Shown: positions 19,634 through 27,702 of the stretch, in pieces
Numbering within the stretch: the stretch's first letter is position 1
How the letters are laid out: each line of letters opens with the position of its first letter
Source: Candidatus Uhrbacteria bacterium
GTDB taxonomy: Bacteria; Patescibacteriota; Patescibacteriia; 2-12-FULL-60-25
Assembly: GCA_020850575.1 (NCBI GenBank)
Contig: JADZEJ010000002.1
Coordinates: 238,511-302,510, forward strand
Reading direction: 5' to 3'
DNA: 64,000 nt
Program-made: the position numbers and the translations under genes
The notes under the pieces: model-generated
Told to the model about the DNA's origin: nothing
Database searches by the model: none
Seen by the model: the letters and a program-made list of their open reading frames with translations, nothing else

Positions 19634-19810
19634 CTAGGCAAGTTTCGCCAAGGTTTGACCCTGGCGAGCTTTGCGGCGATGGCGTTGGACGATCTTGTGA
19701 ACCGTTGTCCAATGGAGGTTGAATTCGCCAGCCACCTCCCGAATTGTACTACCCGATAAACATTTTCTCACGATTTGCAGATTCCGCTGCGATTTTTCTG
19801 GCCTGGACAT
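19634..19810 (-). CDS. possible 58-aa helix-turn-helix protein (excisionase or regulator candidate)
   Basis: Hand-found ORF MSRPEKSQRNLQIVRKCLSGSTIREVAGEFNLHWTTVHKIVQRHRRKARQGQTLAKLA. It has an HTH-like core and overlaps the integrase 3' end out of frame by 62 nt. Confidence 0.4.
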   Translation of the reverse strand: MSRPEKSQRNLQIVRKCLSGSTIREVAGEFNLHWTTVHKIVQRHRRKARQGQTLAKLA

Positions 19811-20819
19811 AGGATTGCTCTAAGATATTACCTACTGGCTCAGATGCAGACTGTTTTTTATCCACCGATGCATCGAACGATGCCTCAAACACCTTGCGAT
19901 ACTCATGCTCCACATCCGTGTTTTTGTACCCCATATATATGGTGGTCGAACGGATGTTCGCGTGGCCCATCATGACTTGAAGATATCGGAGATTCACGTT
20001 TCTTTTGACGCCAAGAGATGCGAATCCATGTCGGCATGAGTGAGGCGTGATCCGCTTCTCGATACCTAGCTTCGCCCTGGCCGCACGGAACGTCTTTTGA
20101 ACCGCGCTGCGATCCATGCGTTTTGGCTCCGTGGCCGTATTGAAGCTGATGAATAGAGCTTCGGAACCGCTGTCCTTCCGACCAAGGATACGTTCCCTAA
20201 CTTCGATCCAGCGTGCCAGCAAACGATTCGTTTCATCGTCCCAATACACCTCACGCTTGTGATATTTGCACTTAAAAGTCTTTGCAACTGCTTTTCGCTG
20301 GTTCAGATCAATGTCGTCCACGTTCAGATTGAGCATCTCGCCTAAACGCAGACCCGTGTTGTAAAGGAACGCGACGATTGTCTTATCCCGCAATTCCTTG
20401 GGATACATTTCATCGTACAGGTTTAAGATCGCTTTATATTCATGAGGCTCAAGAAACGGATGGGACTCCTTTTCGACACCCTGCGGAACCGGAATGAGAT
20501 CGTCATTGATTTTAACTTTCCCCTGACGATAGAGCCATTTCCACAACGTCCGGAGTGACGTGATGTACAGAGCTCGCGTACCGCCCCTCAGTCCCCGATT
20601 CTCCAGCCAGATGTGATACCTGGAGAGATCGTCGATATCACAATCGGTCAGTACCTTCCCGAGTTCGTTCAGGTACTTGGTCAATGAATAAAGCGCGAAC
20701 TTATAGGACGAGACTGTAGCCGGAGACCGGCTGCCGCCCAGCCAAACGAGGAAACTGTCGATAATCTTATCGTTATCGATCATATAAACCGCCCACCCTA
20801 CTTCCGCCTCGGATTGCAA
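19749..20819 (-). CDS. tyrosine site-specific recombinase (phage integrase / XerC-D family)
   Basis: Motifs NTGLRLGE, HSCRHGFAS and GHANIRSTTIYMGY (catalytic R..HxxR..Y). An alternative start MIDNDK lies at 20783. Confidence 0.9.
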   Translation of the reverse strand: MQSEAEVGWAVYMIDNDKIIDSFLVWLGGSRSPATVSSYKFALYSLTKYLNELGKVLTDCDIDDLSRYHIWLENRGLRGGTRALYITSLRTLWKWLYRQGKVKINDDLIPVPQGVEKESHPFLEPHEYKAILNLYDEMYPKELRDKTIVAFLYNTGLRLGEMLNLNVDDIDLNQRKAVAKTFKCKYHKREVYWDDETNRLLARWIEVRERILGRKDSGSEALFISFNTATEPKRMDRSAVQKTFRAARAKLGIEKRITPHSCRHGFASLGVKRNVNLRYLQVMMGHANIRSTTIYMGYKNTDVEHEYRKVFEASFDASVDKKQSASEPVGNILEQSYVQARKIAAESANREKMFIG

Positions 20820-21065: not shown

Positions 21066-22067
21066 TTATTTATCAGAAATTAGCCATGCGATGTTTTGAA
21101 CTTTTTCAGATAGCTTATGAGTGTATCCGTGGCTAAGCAGTCCCACGTAAGATGCGACTGTCTGAGCGTTTGGACTCTGCCTCACTCTTTTCAGGATCCT
21201 CGATTTCGTCTTCTGGCGCGGGACGCGATGGTGTGGGAAATGCACCCAGCCGAGAAAATCCACTCCCGAGGCAAGCGTCTTAATGAAGACTTTATTCGGA
21301 TACAGTTCCAAGTCCAATGGTCCAGCGAGAAATGCGGCGATTTTAGGAAGGCATTCGAGCAACTCCTGTCGGTCGCGTGATAAAAATACAAAATCGTCGG
21401 CATAGCGAGCGTAGTATTTCGCCCTCAATTCATGCTTCACATACCGATCAAACTCATTCATGTAAATGTTAGCAAAGATCTGTGAAGTAAGATTGCCAAG
21501 CGGTATACCTTTCCCCGGGCGAGTCTGAAAGCTCACGATGACGCGTCGAAGTAAATCTAGAAGCCACCTGTCTGCGATTCTCCGATCCAAAATCTCGAGA
21601 AGGATTTGGTGATTGATGCTCGCAAAAAATTTCCGGATGTCGCATTTCAAAACCCAACACGTTTTAGTGCCGTTCTTGCTCGCTTTTCTAGACAGCCTCT
21701 CGAAGCGCTCAAGCGCACGATGCAACCCCTTGGTTTTCTGGCATGAAAAAGAATCGAAAATGAACACACTGGCGAAAAATGGATATAGCTTCCGATGAAT
21801 GGCATGATGCAGCAACCTATCCCGCACGGTCGCTTTGTGGATTTCCCGCGGCTTTGGATCGTTAATGCGGAAATGCGAGTAAGTGCCATGGCAATACGTG
21901 CCATTCATCAAATCCAGATGCAAATTCGCGATCTCGTCCCCGAGACGGAGCATGAACTCCTGCACATCTTTCTTCTTTCGTTTCCCTCGGATAAACTCTT
22001 GCCAAGCTTCACATAAATTTTCCATCGATACGATTTCATCGAAGGAGATAAATAATAATTTTCTCAT
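21066..22067 (-). CDS. DGR reverse transcriptase
   Basis: Motifs GIPLGNLTSQIFANIYM (DGR-type xxSQ motif) and YARYADDFVF (YxDD), about 333 aa from MRKLLFISFDE. A TR and VR lie nearby. The ORF track extends to 22145. Confidence 0.9.
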   Translation of the reverse strand: MRKLLFISFDEIVSMENLCEAWQEFIRGKRKKKDVQEFMLRLGDEIANLHLDLMNGTYCHGTYSHFRINDPKPREIHKATVRDRLLHHAIHRKLYPFFASVFIFDSFSCQKTKGLHRALERFERLSRKASKNGTKTCWVLKCDIRKFFASINHQILLEILDRRIADRWLLDLLRRVIVSFQTRPGKGIPLGNLTSQIFANIYMNEFDRYVKHELRAKYYARYADDFVFLSRDRQELLECLPKIAAFLAGPLDLELYPNKVFIKTLASGVDFLGWVHFPHHRVPRQKTKSRILKRVRQSPNAQTVASYVGLLSHGYTHKLSEKVQNIAWLISDK

Positions 22068-22081
22068 AGAGGAGTATGTTA

Positions 22082-22092
22082 CCCCCCCCCCC
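22082..22092. repeat. C11 (G11 on the minus strand) homopolymer between the RT and avd starts
   Basis: Direct count of eleven consecutive C. Confidence 0.9.
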
Positions 22093-22116
22093 GCAAAAAT
22101 CACGTCAAATCTTCCC

Positions 22117-22464
22117 GTGTTGCAGAAGGTTGTTGATGTATACAAAATCTGGCACGCCCATTATTCAAATTTCCCCCGTCTTTCTAAATTTTCACTCGGC
22201 GCAAAAATAGACTCTCTGTTCACCGACCTGATCGAGCTCATCTTTCTTGCCGGTTATGCCGGATCCGATCAAAAATACACGTTCGTAGTACGCGCATCTA
22301 CAAAACTCGATCTACTTAAATTTTTCATGCAGGCCGCATGGGAAGTAAAGTGCTTGGACCAAAGAAAGTACGCGGCACTCGCTGTACCGCTGAACGAAAT
22401 CGGAAAAGACATTGGTAGCTGGCAAAAATTCCTACAAACGAAACAGCCCCCATCCAAAGAATGA
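22117..22464 (+). CDS. avd: Avd-like four-helix-bundle protein (accessory variability determinant family)
   Basis: KIWHAHYSNFPRLSKFSLGAKI...LKFFMQAAWEVKCLD...IGKDIGSWQKF resembles the Avd / 23S-IVS four-helix-bundle family. GTG start at 22117. The 21883-22116 part of the tracked ORF is antisense to the RT. Confidence 0.75.
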   Translation: MLQKVVDVYKIWHAHYSNFPRLSKFSLGAKIDSLFTDLIELIFLAGYAGSDQKYTFVVRASTKLDLLKFFMQAAWEVKCLDQRKYAALAVPLNEIGKDIGSWQKFLQTKQPPSKE

Positions 22465-22493
22465 GGGCGTTCGTTATAAAAACGTGAAGAGAT

Positions 22494-22624
22494 TTGCGGA
22501 CGAACAGGAACCGGTTGTCGGAGTTCCACTCGTTGTCGAACCAGTTGTTGTCGAGGATGCGCCTGTCGGAGTTGCTGTTCAGCATCGCGACGTTGCGGTT
22601 GTCGTCGTACATCGTGGACGAGCC
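22494..22624 (-). repeat. DGR template repeat (TR)
   Basis: 131 nt homologous to 22998-23131. It is adenine- and AAC-rich on the minus strand (9 AAC codons in the VR frame). Confidence 0.85.
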
Positions 22625-22877
22625 GTCCTGTCCGTGTCGGGAGCCATCCAGATCACCACCGCTTGAATCATCTCGCGGTTGAATTTTATTCGGGGCCGTT
22701 AGCCCGCCAGCTCCCAACACCAAGTATCTTCAGTTCATGAACGAGCCGACGCACGCTGCCGACCGGCGTACCGCCCGGCATTCTGGCAAACGAGCTCATT
22801 CAGATTTCGACCGCCTGCAACCGTAATCGCAAGCTGTTTCGTCTACTATCCGTGTGTAATTTTATCAAAAAGCAAGC

Positions 22878-22929
22878 GACCCCGTCCAACGCGCGAATCC
22901 AAGTTTCGGATTGCGTGTCGGACGGGGTC
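22878..22929 (-). other. long GC-rich hairpin downstream of the VR (terminator and/or DGR homing-associated stem-loop)
   Basis: GACCCCGTCC pairs with GGACGGGGTC, with an imperfect interior and an apical AATCC/GGATT stem. A T5 run follows on the minus strand. Confidence 0.6.
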
Positions 22930-22993
22930 TGAGCGCCAAGAGTCCAAGGTCCCAAGAGCCTTTTTAAGGGCCGAGGGACCGAGGGTCCAAGTG

Positions 22994-23659
22994 CTACTTG
23001 CGGACGAACAGGAACCGGAAGCCGGAGCGCCAACCGCGGGCGAACCAGTCGCTGCCGAGGATGCGCCCGTCGGAGACGCTGCACAGCATCGCGACGAAGC
23101 GGTCGTCGCCGTCGTACCGCGTGGACGAGCCGAGAGCGACGATCCAGAACTGACGCTGCAGCTCCGGGTTGGCCTTGGCGAACGCGTACGCCTCGAGGTG
23201 GGTCGCGGGGCGGTAGCCCAGCTTGTCCATCTCAGCGATGGCGTCCTCGGACTCGATCGCCCGGTTGAAGTGCTTGACGAGCATGATGCGCTCGCCCGGC
23301 GTCTGGTCGATCTCGGCGCACGACGAGTGATTCTTCCACTCGTAGTTGCCGTAGAACAGCTCTGACACGCCGTCCTTCGAGAACTCGCTCTCGAGCTTGG
23401 CCTTGTCGCGCGGCATCTCGTAGCTGACCGGCACGCGGTACTCGCCATCGACGAGCGGTCGCTCCATCTCCGAACCGGCCGGGACGATGAGATCTGCGAT
23501 CTGCTTCTGCAGAGCGCTTTCCTTCACCACCCGCCGCAGGTGCTGCATGGTTCCGCCCTTGGCCATGACGGCGTGAGCGATCACCTTGAAGACCTCGAAC
23601 GCGAAGCCGAGATTGCTGAGTACGTCACCGATCGCCTGATCCTTCTTGTTCTGTCGCAT
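22994..23659 (-). CDS. DGR variable (target) protein, C-terminal VR of C-type-lectin-like style
   Basis: ATG at 23659 sits 6 nt after GGAGAG. The C-terminus is ..GSSTRYDGDDRFVAMLCSVSDGRILGSDWFARGWRSGFRFLFVRK. High GC. The tracked ORF starts at a GTG at 23686. Confidence 0.85.
   Translation of the reverse strand: MRQNKKDQAIGDVLSNLGFAFEVFKVIAHAVMAKGGTMQHLRRVVKESALQKQIADLIVPAGSEMERPLVDGEYRVPVSYEMPRDKAKLESEFSKDGVSELFYGNYEWKNHSSCAEIDQTPGERIMLVKHFNRAIESEDAIAEMDKLGYRPATHLEAYAFAKANPELQRQFWIVALGSSTRYDGDDRFVAMLCSVSDGRILGSDWFARGWRSGFRFLFVRK
22998..23131 (-). repeat. DGR variable region (VR)
   Basis: Aligns to the TR with about 22 substitutions at TR adenines, 2 at other bases and one extra codon. The last 20 nt are identical (CGGTTCCTGTTCGTCCGCAA). 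Confidence 0.85.
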
Positions 23660-23790
23660 GGTCGTCTCTCCGTTTTTCCGGCTCACCTCTTAATCCCGCA
23701 CCATGCAGGACCACAAGGCTTGCCTATCCGTGACCGAAGCTAAGTAGACACTTGGAAATGTAAGGTTCAGAACCGTAGTCTGAATAAAAC

Positions 23791-23819
23791 AAGATAGCAT
23801 AAAACAGGCCTTTTGTCAA
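23791..23819 (-). promoter_or_regulatory. sigma70-type promoter for the DGR target gene
   Basis: On the minus strand: TTGACA, a 17-nt spacer ending in TGc, then TATCTT. Confidence 0.55.
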
Positions 23820-23866: not shown

Positions 23867-25550
23867 TTAGCCAATTCTCTGAATTTCTTCAGTTAACACA
23901 CTGCTAATAGCACGTCTCCACTCAGATGCCTCTTGACTATCACGTAGAATGCAACAGCGATCTAGCAAATCCTTCACGTACTGGACGTTAACTTTGTTGT
24001 TAATAAATTGCGCCTCAAAAAATTCCTTAAACTGGATAAGCGTAAAAGGCACGATATTCAATCGAACCCTCTGTTCGTCTTTGTTGAACCACTCACCTCT
24101 CCGAAAAGTTTCGAGAGTATTAATGTCTATCTTATTCGCGATGAATAATCCGTAGACCGGTTTGGTTGTCCGTTCTGCAATCACAGACACATGACGGCGT
24201 ACCGGCTCACCCTCAACCGCCTCCTGTCTTGAACTCTCAGTCAGCGTAACCTCAACCACCAATATAAAATTCTCCAGTTCAAAAATTAAATCCGGTCCGT
24301 TGCCTGGAGCTGTACCAATTGGAAGAAAATCTTGATCAATTTTAAATCTTCGCGCTTCGTATGGTTTATTGATCAAACTATACTATTGCCAGAAAAGCTC
24401 TCCATAAAACCCATTCAAAATACGCAGCCGCTTCAGCTTTAGGAACCTGAATTTGATTGCCTTCGGAAAGGGTGGCGGAACGGAGTTTCCCTGAGATCAA
24501 ATCCATGTACGTTGCGATCTCTTTCCATTCAGCTGCTTGGTCAATCGCATATTTCTCTTCATTGGCACGACTGAGTAATTCCTCAGCTTGGAATCTTACT
24601 TGTCCGATATCCGCAGGCGTCTTTAGCGATTCCTTTTTGACTTCCAGCTTCAAATTTTTATCTTTCAGGCGTTCGAGTAAGTCGTCGAGTACCACCAAAG
24701 CTGAATCCTTATCGTCAGTTGGCAGCGCGGCTCCATTGCAAAGTGCCGTGAAGTAGGCAATTTCAGACTGAGGCATCTGACTTTGCTGAACGAACTTCTC
24801 AATAAATAGATGCTTCTCTGGGATGATGGAAATTCCCCTTCCAGCACCCTGAACCAAACCAGTCGCCTTTAAATAACGAATATTTGTGTCCGCGTAATCA
24901 TTGAACGTCTGCTCTTTATAATCATGCACTACTGAAGCCTTTTCACGTTCAACTCGATCGAATTTACGTTTATTATCACTCGATAATCGACGTGATCGAA
25001 TATCCAAAACGCGATGAACCACTTCACTGAGATCATCGTCGCTATTTGTCAGCTGTGCTACAACAGCCATTTCGATAAAATTGATTCTGCTATCACCGGT
25101 TTCTCTTTCAAGTTCCAACATGATTTTCAAAATATGCTGCAACGGAGAGAATACAGAAAACTCATAGTCATCTTCCAGCACCGATGGTATGACGTAGGCC
25201 GCAAGCGATCTTAAAAAACACTCCTGCATTGCAGGAACCGTCTCTGCTTTAATGAGTCTTAAACCGTTCGGTGTGATTCTATCGACTTCACCAATTTGCG
25301 CCTGATCAATGCCGAGAGATTTTGGGATCTCTGGATACAAAAAACCGAGCTTGGTTAATGCCGATCGCCACTTCCGTCCGACACTATAGGTTTTATCCTC
25401 GCCCAGCTCCACAATGCCATGCTCCCCGAGGAGTTTACGAAATGCAATGTCCTGCTCCTTACCTCGCAAGTTCCCTTGAAGTTCCGATCCATAGAGCGCT
25501 ACAAGGCCATCGCGCAGGCGAAATGGACTGCGGACGGTTGTGTTTCCCCC
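23867..25550 (-). pseudogene. AlwI-family-like type II restriction endonuclease, frameshifted and lacking its own start
   Basis: Has GNTTVRSPFRLRDGL, GRKWRSALTKLGF and YADTNIRYLKATGL. The frame breaks at 24376-24378. The nuclease core continues as PDLIFELENFILVVEVTL...GEPVRRH. The family call is from memory. Confidence 0.55.
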
Positions 25551-26051
25551 GCCATAGGTCGATGACCGAATGATGGAGCGGTACCAAGTCGAACCAATCT
25601 TGAACAGGTACACGCGACCTACGGTGAAGATCGTCGTTTGGTCTCCTGCGATCGTGTGTTGGTTTGCTGCAGAGACGGTCGTGACGGTTGATTGCAGAAT
25701 CATGCCTTGGGTTACCGGTCCGATCTCGATTTGCATGCCGTCAAAATGCGCTTTCGTGAGATGAAGCTCGATGACGGTTCCTGCGGCGTGCGTAGCGGTC
25801 GTCGTGCCGTTGTATCCGCGCGTATCGATTGTGCATGTGACCGTCCCGCCTGAAATCGACATAGCCGAAAGCAAGATCTGTTCCTGCTCAATCGTGAGAA
25901 TCGCCTTGGATCCAGCCGGCATGTTCCACGATTGCGTACCAAGAACGGACGATGAAGATCCTGTGAAATTGCCGGACGTGAGCGAAGAAAGGAGCTGGGC
26001 GTCCAGCAGGAAAGAAGCGCGATCGAGAATGTAGATGTTTTGGTATGGCAT
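25545..26051 (-). pseudogene. phage tail-fibre-like N-terminal fragment (5' part of chimeric ORF 24378..26051)
   Basis: MPYQNIYILD...TRGYNGTTTATHAAGTVIELHLTKAHF resembles phage fibre N-termini. It is high GC, unlike the AlwI-like part. Confidence 0.45.
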
Positions 26052-26052
26052 A

Positions 26053-26313
26053 TCAGAAATAACGTGAATAATGGATTTCAGTCACCGCGATCGAGAAACC
26101 CGAGCCGGTGAGCGTGATCTTGAAGATATTGGTACCCGCTACGACTTTCGGAAGGATGCCCGTGTAATCAATGTCGACTCCGTTTTTTGTGACTCGTTTA
26201 TTCTCTCCGTCAATGATGACCTGATCGCCATTCGTGAAGCTCCCAGCGATGATGAGCTTGTCGCCATTCGTTGTGTTCTCCCGTGTGATTTGCGATACGG
26301 TGCCGGCCGTCAC
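26053..26313 (-). pseudogene. C-terminal fragment of a phage distal-tail (Dit-like) protein
   Basis: ..DQVIIDGENKRVTKNGVDIDYTGILPKVVAGTNIFKIT.. matches the typical siphophage tail-component C-terminus. Only about 86-95 aa remain. Confidence 0.4.
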
Positions 26314-26318
26314 GAGGG

Positions 26319-26867
26319 TCAGGTACGCGAGAGCATCCGCTTGCCGTTGACGGTCGCGATCGCGTCGACCAAGTCCGCGTATCCGTGGACGCGCGAGTAG
26401 ATGAGCTTTTCGGCGTGTTGGAATCGCACGTCATGTTCGTTGAACCAGCTCAGGAACGCGTTGATGCCGGCACGGACGCGTCCGTCCGAATCGTCCGGAA
26501 TAGACGGAACGTCCGATCGATGGATGACTGCGAGCGCGAATGCTTCCGCGTACGCGTGCACCATGTCTCCGATGGATGCCGCTTGTTCCTTCTTGATCTG
26601 GTGTTGGCGGACGGCTTCCTCGATAACCGGAACGATTTCCTCGACCGTGAACGGTCCGGAATTGGATTCGAGGAATGAACGGAGGTGCTTCTCGGCAAGC
26701 CCAACTGCCCATGGGATGAGGAATCGGGACTTGTCGATGATGCCCGTGCAAGCCGTGACCGAAAGCAGGTATTCTTTCGAACCTTCGATCCGGTAACGGT
26801 GCGAGTCAGGCAGATGCTCGAGCGTGATTTCTCCGCCGTAGAGCTTCTCGGTGATTTTTTCAGCCAT
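26319..26867 (-). CDS. phage PD-(D/E)XK-type exonuclease, apparently C-terminally truncated
   Basis: HRYRIEG..LLSVTACTGIIDKSRFLIPWA..GDMVHAYAE..GYADLVDAI pattern. It ends abruptly where the tail fragment begins. Confidence 0.5.
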   Translation of the reverse strand: MAEKITEKLYGGEITLEHLPDSHRYRIEGSKEYLLSVTACTGIIDKSRFLIPWAVGLAEKHLRSFLESNSGPFTVEEIVPVIEEAVRQHQIKKEQAASIGDMVHAYAEAFALAVIHRSDVPSIPDDSDGRVRAGINAFLSWFNEHDVRFQHAEKLIYSRVHGYADLVDAIATVNGKRMLSRT

Positions 26868-26871
26868 ATGG

Positions 26872-27702
26872 TTAGACGGCTGCCGCGACTTTGGTTCGCG
26901 CGGTTTCGAGTGCCTGATTCGGATCGACTTGCGGTTTGGCTGGCGCGGGCGGAGTCACCGGAGCTTCGGTTTTTGGTTCCGCAGCAACAGGTTTCTTTGA
27001 CCACGCATAGCTTTCCGTGCCATGGACGGCCTTAATGATCTTCGAAAAGTCCGGCTCGATGATTTTCCCGAGCTGGCCAGTCCGATCCTTGGCCGTGAAC
27101 TTGTCCGATGAAGGATCCACGAATATGACGCGCTTCGATTCGCCGTCGGCGGTTTGAACGACCGTCATGTAGCCGACCACGTCAACCATGTTCACGATGT
27201 CCTTCGAGACTTTGGTCGTGATAAGCGGACGCAAAAGAACCCGATCTTCGTCAGGCTTGTCGTCCACGTGGGCGATCAAAAGAACGTGCATGCCGGAGTC
27301 CCGGAGCACCTTCACGTAGTCGCGCATGGTTTTACGGAGCCACCCCAAACCAGCTTGGCTGGGAGAGCCATCCTTTTGTACGAGCTTGGAATCGCCGAGA
27401 GCCCCCATGTGGCGCATGAGCTTTTCCATGAGTTCACCGATAGGGTCGATGACGGCAGTTTCGTACCCGCTCTTTTTGAGAGCTTCGGTGTACTCTCGCA
27501 TGTCGGCCCATTTCTCGACGTGAGCCACGTCGAGTTTGATCCCGCGCAATCCGAAATACTTCGAACCGTTCTCGCAGTCCGCCATGAGCGGCTTGGGAGC
27601 GGTTGATGCAAACGTTGATTTGCCGACGCCGCCTTCGCCATACACGAGCATGACGAGCGGAGGTTTAACCGACGGATCGCCGGTGTTGATGATTTTGAGC
27701 AT
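26872..27702 (-). CDS. Sak4-like AAA_24 phage recombination ATPase
   Basis: LVMLVYGEGGVGKSTFASTAPKPLMADCENG (Walker A plus an AAA_24-style N-terminus). RBS AAGAGGA upstream. Confidence 0.8.
   Translation of the reverse strand: MLKIINTGDPSVKPPLVMLVYGEGGVGKSTFASTAPKPLMADCENGSKYFGLRGIKLDVAHVEKWADMREYTEALKKSGYETAVIDPIGELMEKLMRHMGALGDSKLVQKDGSPSQAGLGWLRKTMRDYVKVLRDSGMHVLLIAHVDDKPDEDRVLLRPLITTKVSKDIVNMVDVVGYMTVVQTADGESKRVIFVDPSSDKFTAKDRTGQLGKIIEPDFSKIIKAVHGTESYAWSKKPVAAEPKTEAPVTPPAPAKPQVDPNQALETARTKVAAAV

Follow-up and report, generated by a model that had tools for sequence, protein, structure and literature searches.

A Patescibacterial Diversity-Generating Retroelement in Candidatus Uhrbacteria and the Conserved Leader of Its Template Repeat

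Genes and Repeats of the Locus

A stretch of 64,000 nucleotides from the chromosome of a Candidatus Uhrbacteria bacterium (contig JADZEJ010000002.1, positions 238,511 to 302,510; the whole stretch is called the window below) contains a diversity-generating retroelement (DGR). The locus consists of a target gene ending in a variable repeat (VR), a template repeat (TR), the accessory gene avd, and the gene of a DGR-type reverse transcriptase (RT), which are listed in Table 1 together with the noncoding features. From these parts the locus is very probably an intact chromosomal DGR of the Patescibacteria lineage (candidate phyla radiation, CPR) with the order target-TR-(avd)-RT. A preliminary description of this DNA had proposed a complete DGR comprising an RT, an Avd-like gene, a TR and a VR-bearing target, and all of these parts were confirmed. 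It did not mention the inverted position of avd on the plus strand or that this arrangement is the standard CPR one.

Table 1. Features of the locus; positions are counted from the first nucleotide of the window.
Feature	Position	Strand	Remarks
Tyrosine recombinase	19749-20819	-	Pfam Phage_integrase 4e-35; immediately downstream of RT
DGR reverse transcriptase, 333 aa	21066-22067	-	ORF, Pfam, PDB, PHROG and NCBIfam searches
G11 homopolymer, then TAACATA	22082-22092	-	In the 49-nt divergent avd/RT intergenic region
avd accessory gene	22117-22464	+	Antisense to TR, RT and target; start taken as GTG 22117
Hairpin and U-run, terminator-like	22446-22468	-	Between TR end and avd stop; scan; compensatory changes by RNAalifold
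UCUCUUCA motif	22485-22492	-	One base past the end of TR/VR homology; complementary to leader block
Template repeat (TR)	22494-22625	-	35 adenines, nine AAC codons
Structured noncoding leader of TR RNA	22634-22852	-	Helices P1, P2, P3; inner hairpins P3a, P3b; covariation
Leader block UGAAGAUA, candidate primer strand	22725-22732	-	Pairs with 22492-22485
Promoter-like site, TGGACG-18-TAAAAT with TG	22859-22888	-	Consensus match only; candidate promoter of DGR RNA
Long hairpin GACCCCGTCCGAC...GTTGGACGGGGTC, then T-run	22865-22929	-	Terminator-like for target mRNA; conserved in related loci
About 7 NNNCTYGG octamers, two triplets around CCCTTAAAAAGG	22925-22991	-	Directly past target stop codon
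Target gene, 221 aa	22994-23659	-	N-terminal three-helix region; C-terminal alpha/beta domain with VR
Variable repeat (VR)	22998-23132	-	Last ~45 codons of target; TR alignment; family hypervariability at TR A-codons
Promoter-like site, TTGACA-17-TATCTT with TG	23791-23819	-	Upstream of target; consensus match only

Local alignment of the TR (22625 to 22492) with the VR (23132 to 22996), both on the minus strand, covered 134 columns with a single 3-nt insertion in the VR. It contained 24 mismatches, 22 of them at TR adenines (12 A>G, 6 A>T, and 4 A>C). Changes were found at 22 of the 35 TR adenines versus 2 of the 99 other bases (Fisher p = 3.6e-14); a lack of such enrichment is what the preliminary description had named as evidence against a DGR. 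The mismatches are distributed over the three VR codon positions as 10, 12, and 2, and both non-A mismatches adjoin a mutated adenine. The extra VR codon (GAC-GGC-GAC-GAC versus GAC-GAC-AAC in the TR) could be explained by RT slippage on the GAC repeat followed by an A>G change. The 20-mer CGGTTCCTGTTCGTCCGCAA occurs exactly at 22494-22513 and 22998-23017 and nowhere else in the window, where its chance expectation is zero, and its only adenines are the last two positions. Such an identical 3' end appears to be a boundary of the IMH/IMH* (initiation of mutagenic homing) type. The VR forms the last 45 codons of an intact 221-residue ORF, as is typical of a 3'-terminal VR paired with an AAC-rich TR. 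The preliminary description, working by hand, had aligned 22494-22624 with the end of the target at 22998-23131, counted about 22 of 24 substitutions on TR adenines and nine AAC codons, and regarded the identical final 20 nt as IMH-type; the machine analysis reproduced these, and the earlier numbers were essentially exact.

The RT likely starts at ATG 22067 rather than at TTG 22145. DGR RTs are distinguished by an [I/L/V]GxxxSQ motif, where group II and retroviral RTs have QG, together with the catalytic motif YxDD. The window RT matches Pfam RVT_1 (1.2e-24) and has both LGNLTSQIFANIYM (LGNLTSQ) and YADD, in agreement with the DGR-type motifs read earlier from its ORF. Its best solved relative was 8ub7_A (136 bits, E = 1e-38). 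This entry was taken as the Bordetella phage enzyme bRT, because the numbering I181/Q187/D215/D216 fits that of the cryo-EM preprint (bioRxiv 10.1101/2023.10.23.563531), and the window RT aligns residue-for-residue with bRT I181-Q187 and with D215/D216. The best group II intron RT reached only 63 bits (1.6e-16), i.e., 73 bits below bRT, and retron, DRT, and Abi RTs scored lower; the closer kinship to group II or retron enzymes that would have spoken against a DGR was hence not observed in the similarity search. The RT also matched PHROG phrog_1423 ('Reverse transcriptase') at 3.6e-102 and known phage DGR RTs by tblastn. More than 8000 homologues of the RT exist, and among the top 120 (59-94% identity) every named one came from Patescibacteria or Uhrbacteria. 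Motifs and best relatives are those expected of the DGR clade, to which the enzyme would thus belong.

The avd product was assigned by PF22296 bAvd (48.1 bits, 1.8e-12, cutoff 40) and by the PHROG 'Avd protein of DGR' (4e-15). This bears out the Avd-like ORF of the preliminary description, except that the protein does not end at ...SWQKF but continues for 10 further residues. Avd is found in most but not all DGRs, and its inverted orientation is conserved in related loci.

By the paradigm of the Bordetella phage, the TR would be transcribed and its RNA reverse-transcribed by RT-Avd with misincorporation opposite adenines. The cDNA would then take the place of the VR, with the identical A-poor 3' ends of the two repeats serving as anchor, and a ligand-binding surface would be diversified in this way.

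Relation to Known DGRs and Related Loci

DGRs have been catalogued in thousands, and CPR genomes are enriched for them. The order found here, with TR and RT on the minus strand and avd between them on the plus strand, matches architecture B3 of Wu et al. 2018 (PMC5758913), a TR-(avd)-RT core in which avd is encoded in reverse. According to these authors, 90% of the DGRs in CPR genomes are built in this way, and hardly any outside them. DGR clade 2 was described as cellular, confined to Patescibacteria, and provided with targets that have no recognizable domains (Roux et al. 2021, PMC8144416), to which the Patescibacterial RT homologues and the domain-free target of the window correspond, as judged by homologue lists. 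With these CPR DGRs the locus shares the gene order with the inverted avd, a single adjoining small target without a known domain, the chromosomal site in a Patescibacteria genome, and occasional non-A substitutions. The element is a typical member of this published class, from which nothing essential sets it apart. As a DGR it is hence ordinary and its gene order is the standard CPR one; its interest is that of a clean, intact example whose compact target lends itself to structural and functional studies of what is diversified in CPR cells.

Related loci, to which L-numbers are given below, were collected from genome and metagenome collections and from around RT homologues. Their order is target(+), a spacer of ~360-460 nt, TR(+), avd(-), and RT(+). 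Both the gene order and the adenine bias are conserved in at least 15 of them, as exemplified by the fractions of TR/VR mismatches at adenines in L003 (18/19), L020 (21/21), L032 (24/24), L049 (8/8), L173 (22/22), L015 (26/30), and L022 (20/23). L006 and L014 are more decayed and have many non-A mismatches. A VR in L017 (6380-6540) matched the TR of L020 (1222-1355), which lies on another contig of the same metagenome-assembled genome (MAG), with 19 of 19 mismatches at adenines; the L017 target paralogue is only ~45% identical to the window target. Remote targets therefore exist in this lineage, one TR serving at least two genes there, and the window TR could likewise have remote targets outside the 64 kb.

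A different arrangement was observed in L010, L026, and L027 (e.g., L027 4001-6154), where a complete leader and an adenine-rich TR run into a flank of the VR type, with stop codon, CTTGG array, and terminator, beyond which lies a second target paralogue. Neither avd nor RT was present in the ~2.5 kb of these loci downstream. The arrangement looks like a derivative of TR-by-VR recombination and deletion.

Target Protein

For the target, ATG 23659 is the most likely start. The resulting product of 221 residues is 100% identical to a deposited hypothetical protein of Candidatus Uhrbacteria, MCC7357280.1. There are 173 homologues, the named ones nearly all from Patescibacteria MAGs, so that the target represents a family of at least 170 members without an annotated domain. 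No match was found in Pfam, NCBIfam, or PHROG, and a profile search against PDB sequences gave nothing significant. Throughout the family, hypervariability coincides with the TR A-codons: where the first or second base of the TR codon is A, the alignment columns had an entropy of 2.58 bits versus 0.69 for the other columns (p = 6e-8). In close relatives, the scaffolds are near-identical and the VRs quite different throughout.

An AlphaFold (AF2) model built on 47 homologues had a pLDDT of 91.4. Its Foldseek neighbors in PDB and BFVD were largely C-type lectin domains, though with weak matches (all E >= 0.09, the best 0.09-0.15 across the two databases; TM 0.3-0.55). A C-type-lectin or formylglycine-generating-enzyme (FGE)-like fold had been suggested as a check on the target, and the identity of the top neighbors agrees with the former while the weakness of the matches leaves a C-type-lectin-like fold unproven for this model. 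In common with AvpA (nanoarchaeal/CPR), Mtd, and TvpA, the target has a C-terminal VR, variable residues set among an invariant aromatic and glycine scaffold, and C-type lectin domains as the top structural neighbors of its model. Neither its sequence nor its fold significantly matched a variable protein of solved structure, and it differs further in an N-terminal three-helix module. This module is all that the window target has in common with a different target family in L175 (1921-2547). In some members of the window target's own family, P0002 (402 aa) and P0020 (382 aa), the variable domain occurs in two tandem copies, each with a C-terminus of the RF(L/P)xVRK type. Tandem domains and the shared module point to a modular construction of the targets.

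Structured Leader of the TR RNA

A leader of ~220 nt is conserved immediately 5' of the TR, with a gap of 8 nt between helix P3 and the TR in every locus. RNAalifold on 10 loci gave 50 pairs, of which 36 showed compensatory double changes. Of all cells, 95.4% were paired, versus 36-46% with slid partners, and none of 500 shuffles was as high. Compensatory changes were also found for 19 of 21 pairs when 19 sequences were used. A covariance model of the 3' half of the leader, termed R1, gave exactly one match per DGR locus, always on the TR strand (24 in ~486 kb), whereas 893 kb of unrelated viral contigs, used as a control, gave no match. The window leader scores 146 bits, equal to the highest of the family. 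The leader matches no family of Rfam 15; a search with it gave nothing at gathering thresholds over the whole window, and at E <= 10 only three chance-level matches on 22300-23050. A scan of viral contigs with the 14-mer TGAAGATACTTGGT returned 120 loci, which were ascribed to chance because R1 was silent in the 100 that were searched; these 100 make up the 893 kb reused as the negative control. Two ORFs overlap leader and TR, at 22325-22723 on the minus strand (132 aa) and at 22412-22666 on the plus strand (84 aa). They were regarded as artefacts because the TR keeps the reading frame of the target, and the compensatory base changes identify this region as RNA structure rather than coding sequence.

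A long-range duplex connects the leader with the flank 3' of the TR. Pairing of UGAAGAUA with UCUCUUCA was recovered by the minimum-free-energy (MFE) fold of the window sequence alone, and in related loci both strands co-vary, as in AUAAAAUA/UAUUUUGU, UGAAUAUA/UCUAUUCG, UAAAGAUA/UCUCUUUA, UGAAGAA/UUCUUCA, and CACG(U)GGGGAA/UUCCUUCGUG. Compensatory changes were found in at least 6 lineages, and only 1 of 20000 and 3 of 5040 permutations gave duplexes at least as stable as the cognate ones. The UCUCUUCA motif is conserved or co-varying in all lineages examined, and A22725, the last paired base of the leader, is invariant in 19 of 19 loci. TR/VR homology stops one base before the duplex, both here and in the other loci inspected by eye. 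Between the TR and the avd stop, a hairpin has a counterpart in every locus with a different sequence each time, and it is terminator-like because a U-run follows. Handa et al. predicted Avd-binding stem-loops just downstream of the TR in 207 of 278 DGRs, and by analogy the hairpin would sit at the place of such a stem-loop. Upstream of the leader, the TGnTAnAAT block of the promoter-like site is conserved in locus alignments.

From these features a DGR RNA of ~410 nt would be expected, running from ~22852 to ~22440 and consisting of the structured 5' leader, the TR, UCUCUUCA, and the hairpin/terminator. Its strand UGAAGAUA-CUU-GGUGUUGGGAGCU would pair first with the 8 nt 3' of the TR and then, as P3, with the segment 5' of the TR. 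This topology would equal that of the Sp bridging strand of the phage RNA, with a template:primer duplex, a 2-nt linker, and a 'cPRT stop' duplex, and A22725 would be the 2'-OH priming adenosine. We give this comparative RNA model, taken jointly, about even odds.

The phage RNA begins with the upstream stop strand, followed by the TR, which provides at its 3' end the template strand for the primer duplex, the Avd-binding stem-loop, and the primer strand ending in A56; then come a 2-nt linker, the stop-duplex strand, a short stem-loop with adenosines, a single-stranded 'thumb ring', and the bRT-binding stem-loop (bioRxiv 10.1101/2023.10.23.563531). The window RNA begins with the block ending in the invariant A, followed by the CUU linker, the 5' strand of P3, hairpin P3a, and the invariant GAAUAAAAUUCAAC; then come hairpin P3b, the 3' strand of P3, 8 nt, the TR, the template strand, and the hairpin. 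As the bridging strand lies upstream of the TR and not downstream, the RNA would be a circular permutation of the phage RNA, which on this comparison of orders we consider nearly an even possibility. The permuted order would explain why avd can occupy the TR-RT space on the opposite strand. A wider proposal is more tentative, and we rate it somewhat below even: the whole Patescibacteria TR-(avd)-RT class would use a circularly permuted DGR RNA, whose ~220-nt 5' domain supplies the priming A, the strand that closes the loop of the TR, and in all probability the elements bound by the RT, all of which are found 3' of the TR in the phage paradigm. Such an RNA would end at a terminator-like Avd-binding hairpin ~50 nt past the TR, and the conserved G9-12 tract of variable length that separates avd from RT in these cassettes could switch hypermutation on and off by strand slippage.

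The leader thus offers a concrete priming model for the most abundant and least studied class of DGRs, one that would account for the inverted avd. If true, it would mean a self-contained RNA of ~410 nt that is portable into engineered hypermutation systems. Leader, CTTGG array, and G tract belong to the whole class rather than to the window locus; no description of any of them was found in the DGR literature covered, which did not include Paul et al. 2017.

Comparison with the Phage DGR and Retrons

The DGR of Bordetella phage BPP-1 (mtd-avd-TR-brt) shares with the locus the RT family, with the motifs I/LGxLTSQ and YxDD (YADD here and YMDD in bRT), as well as Avd, the adenine-specific TR-to-VR changes, an anchor at the 3' end that is poor in A, and a stem-loop directly following the TR. 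In the RNA, the two have in common a strand that spans from a duplex at the 3' end of the TR to another just 5' of the TR, with a linker of 2-3 nt and a conserved junction adenosine, after which a short hairpin, an A-rich single strand, and a stem-loop follow. The window differs in its avd, which is inverted and downstream of the TR, and in having no ~140-nt TR-RT spacer; in the permuted order, the bridging strand and the putative elements for RT binding precede the TR. Its TR/VR homology stops at the duplex, whereas that of the phage extends through it. Past the VR, the octamer array stands in place of a GC-rich cruciform, and a small cellular protein rather than a tail fiber serves as target. 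Retron msr/msd RNA would be alike only if the permuted model is right, with a structured RNA 5' of the template supplying the 2'-OH primer at a branch point. The window RT is nevertheless of another clade and has an Avd cofactor, the product made from the template shows adenine mutagenesis and has a protein-coding target as its homologue, and the proposed priming residue is A, not G.

Alternative Explanations

Several observations weigh against the reading of the locus as an intact DGR with a permuted RNA. The Avd protein scored 66 bits with NCBIfam NF033474, under the equivalog cutoff of 80. The VR has the 3-nt insertion and two non-A changes relative to the TR, and it is identical in three independent assemblies of the organism (the window and two assemblies from different sequencing runs), giving no direct sign of current activity. 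Known DGR variable proteins were not among the top Foldseek matches of the target model. The permutation model of the RNA is purely comparative with predicted transcript ends, the leader/flank duplex of the L179 lineage is weak (-3 kcal/mol), and priming from a site in the antisense-avd region stands as an alternative to it. The insertion, the non-A changes, and the invariance of the VR speak in particular for a fossil or dormant DGR, whose parts are still recognizable, whose mutagenic retrohoming has ended, and whose TR/VR differences record past activity. The decay of L006 and L014 shows that such loss occurs in the lineage, and L010, L026, and L027 resemble deletion derivatives without avd and RT. 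The ORFs of RT, Avd, and target are all intact, however, with the catalytic YADD and the SQ motif kept; the leader scores as high as any of its family; and only the 2 of 24 differences beside mutated adenines are non-A, a kind of change that is frequent in CPR DGRs. Slippage could account for the insertion, and assembled contigs are consensus sequences that hide minority alleles. We consider dormancy unlikely and the element apparently functional. Still less probable is a prophage or integrative-island element whose target would be a phage receptor-binding protein as in BPP-1. Phage-type genes (Sak4-like annealing protein, exonuclease, and Dit-like tail fragment) just upstream, a tyrosine integrase with a helix-turn-helix (HTH) gene just downstream of the RT, an integrase after the RT also in L173 and L174, and the patchy GC content of the region are in its favor, but capsid, portal, and terminase genes were not found and the phage genes look like remnants, as does a split and fused AlwI nuclease. 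Related cassettes occur in many unrelated chromosomal contexts without phage genes, the 221-residue target has neither a tail-fiber domain nor a PHROG match, the 3.2-kb locus gave no blastn match among 50,697 phage records, and published surveys class CPR clade-2 DGRs as cellular (PMC8144416). Hardly tenable is a reading without a DGR, in which the RT would come from a group II intron, a retron, or a defence system and the TR would be a decayed duplicate of the 3' end of the gene. The top NCBIfam match of the RT is indeed the group II intron RT/maturase model TIGR04416 (131 bits), and databases label relatives as 'retron-type' or 'group II intron RT', but this score is far under the cutoff of 300 and no DGR-RT model was among the NCBIfam hits. 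Against it also stand the 73-bit lead of bRT among solved relatives, the adjoining Avd gene, and an adenine asymmetry that is not a product of neutral decay; no intron RNA domains (I-VI) enclosing an RT/maturase, nor any other Rfam match, were found in the window.

A further alternative concerns the leader alone, which could stand outside the reverse-transcription ribonucleoprotein (RNP) as a cis-regulatory element or a separate small RNA, controlling TR transcription, RNA stability, or RT/Avd expression, while priming takes place downstream of the TR as in the phage. We regard this as rather unlikely, though less so than dormancy. The essential RNA elements of the Bordetella phage, except for ~20 nt, are all downstream of the TR; Handa et al. 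reported Sp-like elements in CPR DGRs from 40 nt upstream and 100 nt downstream of the TR; and a weak second helix was predicted in the antisense-avd region. On the other side, the leader adjoins the TR in every locus, 8 nt from P3, and its invariant block pairs with the 8 nt past the TR/VR homology with compensatory changes in several lineages, the post-TR hairpin with its U-run is terminator-like, and the need to encode avd on the opposite strand constrains the region downstream.

Octamer Array, G Tract, and Other Cis Elements

Four overlapping CTYGGNNNCTYGG matches were found in the octamer array versus 0.19 expected in the whole window, and related loci have 3-6 CTTGG per 100 nt past the VR versus a background of 0.16. 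The array is kept past most DGR-adjacent VRs, including that of the different target family in L175, and is absent past the TR. No array was found past the VR of the remote target in L017, which is diversified at adenines nonetheless; the array is therefore not required for homing, and its candidacy as a homing signal equivalent to the phage cruciform was weakened. Pairing of the array with the invariant ACUUGG of the leader was rejected, as lineages with CUCGG or AUCGG leaders keep CTTGG arrays and AT-rich lineages have CTTAG arrays yet keep ACUUGG.

A GC-rich inverted repeat past the VR occurs in ~34% of DGRs and is not strictly defining. In the window, a search for such a cruciform found only the 5-bp GGACC-CTC-GGTCC inside the array, and in L003, L005, L009, and L040 a strong GC hairpin is inserted past the VR.

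The G tract also recurs: G9-12 followed by TA(A/C)CAT lies between the divergent avd and RT starts in 13 of the 13 loci where this region was located (window, L006, L022, L032, L049, L173-L175, and L177-L181), and it measures 12 nt in L173 and 10 nt in L174, two near-identical loci. Such a tract may be a slipped-strand switch, or else a promoter or 5' untranslated region (5'UTR) element. The poly-G tract and the CTTGG array are hence conserved cis elements without an assigned role. The GC content of target, spacer, and TR is 55-70% versus 33-53% for avd and RT, and the former are 7-25 points richer in every locus examined. Adenine loss in the VR does not explain this contrast, because the non-variable part of the target is GC-rich as well.

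Genomic Surroundings

A ribosomal-protein operon (S4, RpoA, L17, L13, and S9) lies just upstream of the DGR, and polysaccharide genes lie downstream. The window as a prophage was rejected, since it is flanked by these genes and has only phage remnants between them. No tRNA genes were found in the window when it was checked for an integration site. The related cassettes elsewhere lie without phage genes in unrelated contexts such as EF-G, NusB/RNase III, ribosomal S16, and D-Ala ligase.

Prophage remnants at 26053-27702 on the minus strand, between the ribosomal-protein operon and the DGR, encode the Sak4-like annealing protein, a PD-(D/E)XK-type exonuclease, and an 86-residue fragment of a siphovirus Dit C-terminal domain. 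An annealing protein beside an element that integrates cDNA is a notable coincidence, and it is not conserved at the other loci. The following segment, 23867-26051 on the minus strand, contains an AlwI-family restriction endonuclease split into ORFs of 557 and 169 residues by a frame change at 24376-24378, the first with an N-terminal extension of ~230 residues unrelated to AlwI. Of the two other assemblies, L001 has the split as well, and in L002 the second ORF is shorter (130 aa); the gene is likely a pseudogene or fusion remnant.

On the other side of the DGR, the tyrosine recombinase and a small HTH gene occupy 19634-20819 on the same strand as the RT. A methyltransferase fragment is likewise among the genes between the ribosomal-protein operon and the polysaccharide genes. 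The adjacency of RT and integrase recurs in L173 (4797-5831) and L174 (4605-5486), which suggests that some DGR cassettes travel as integrative units.

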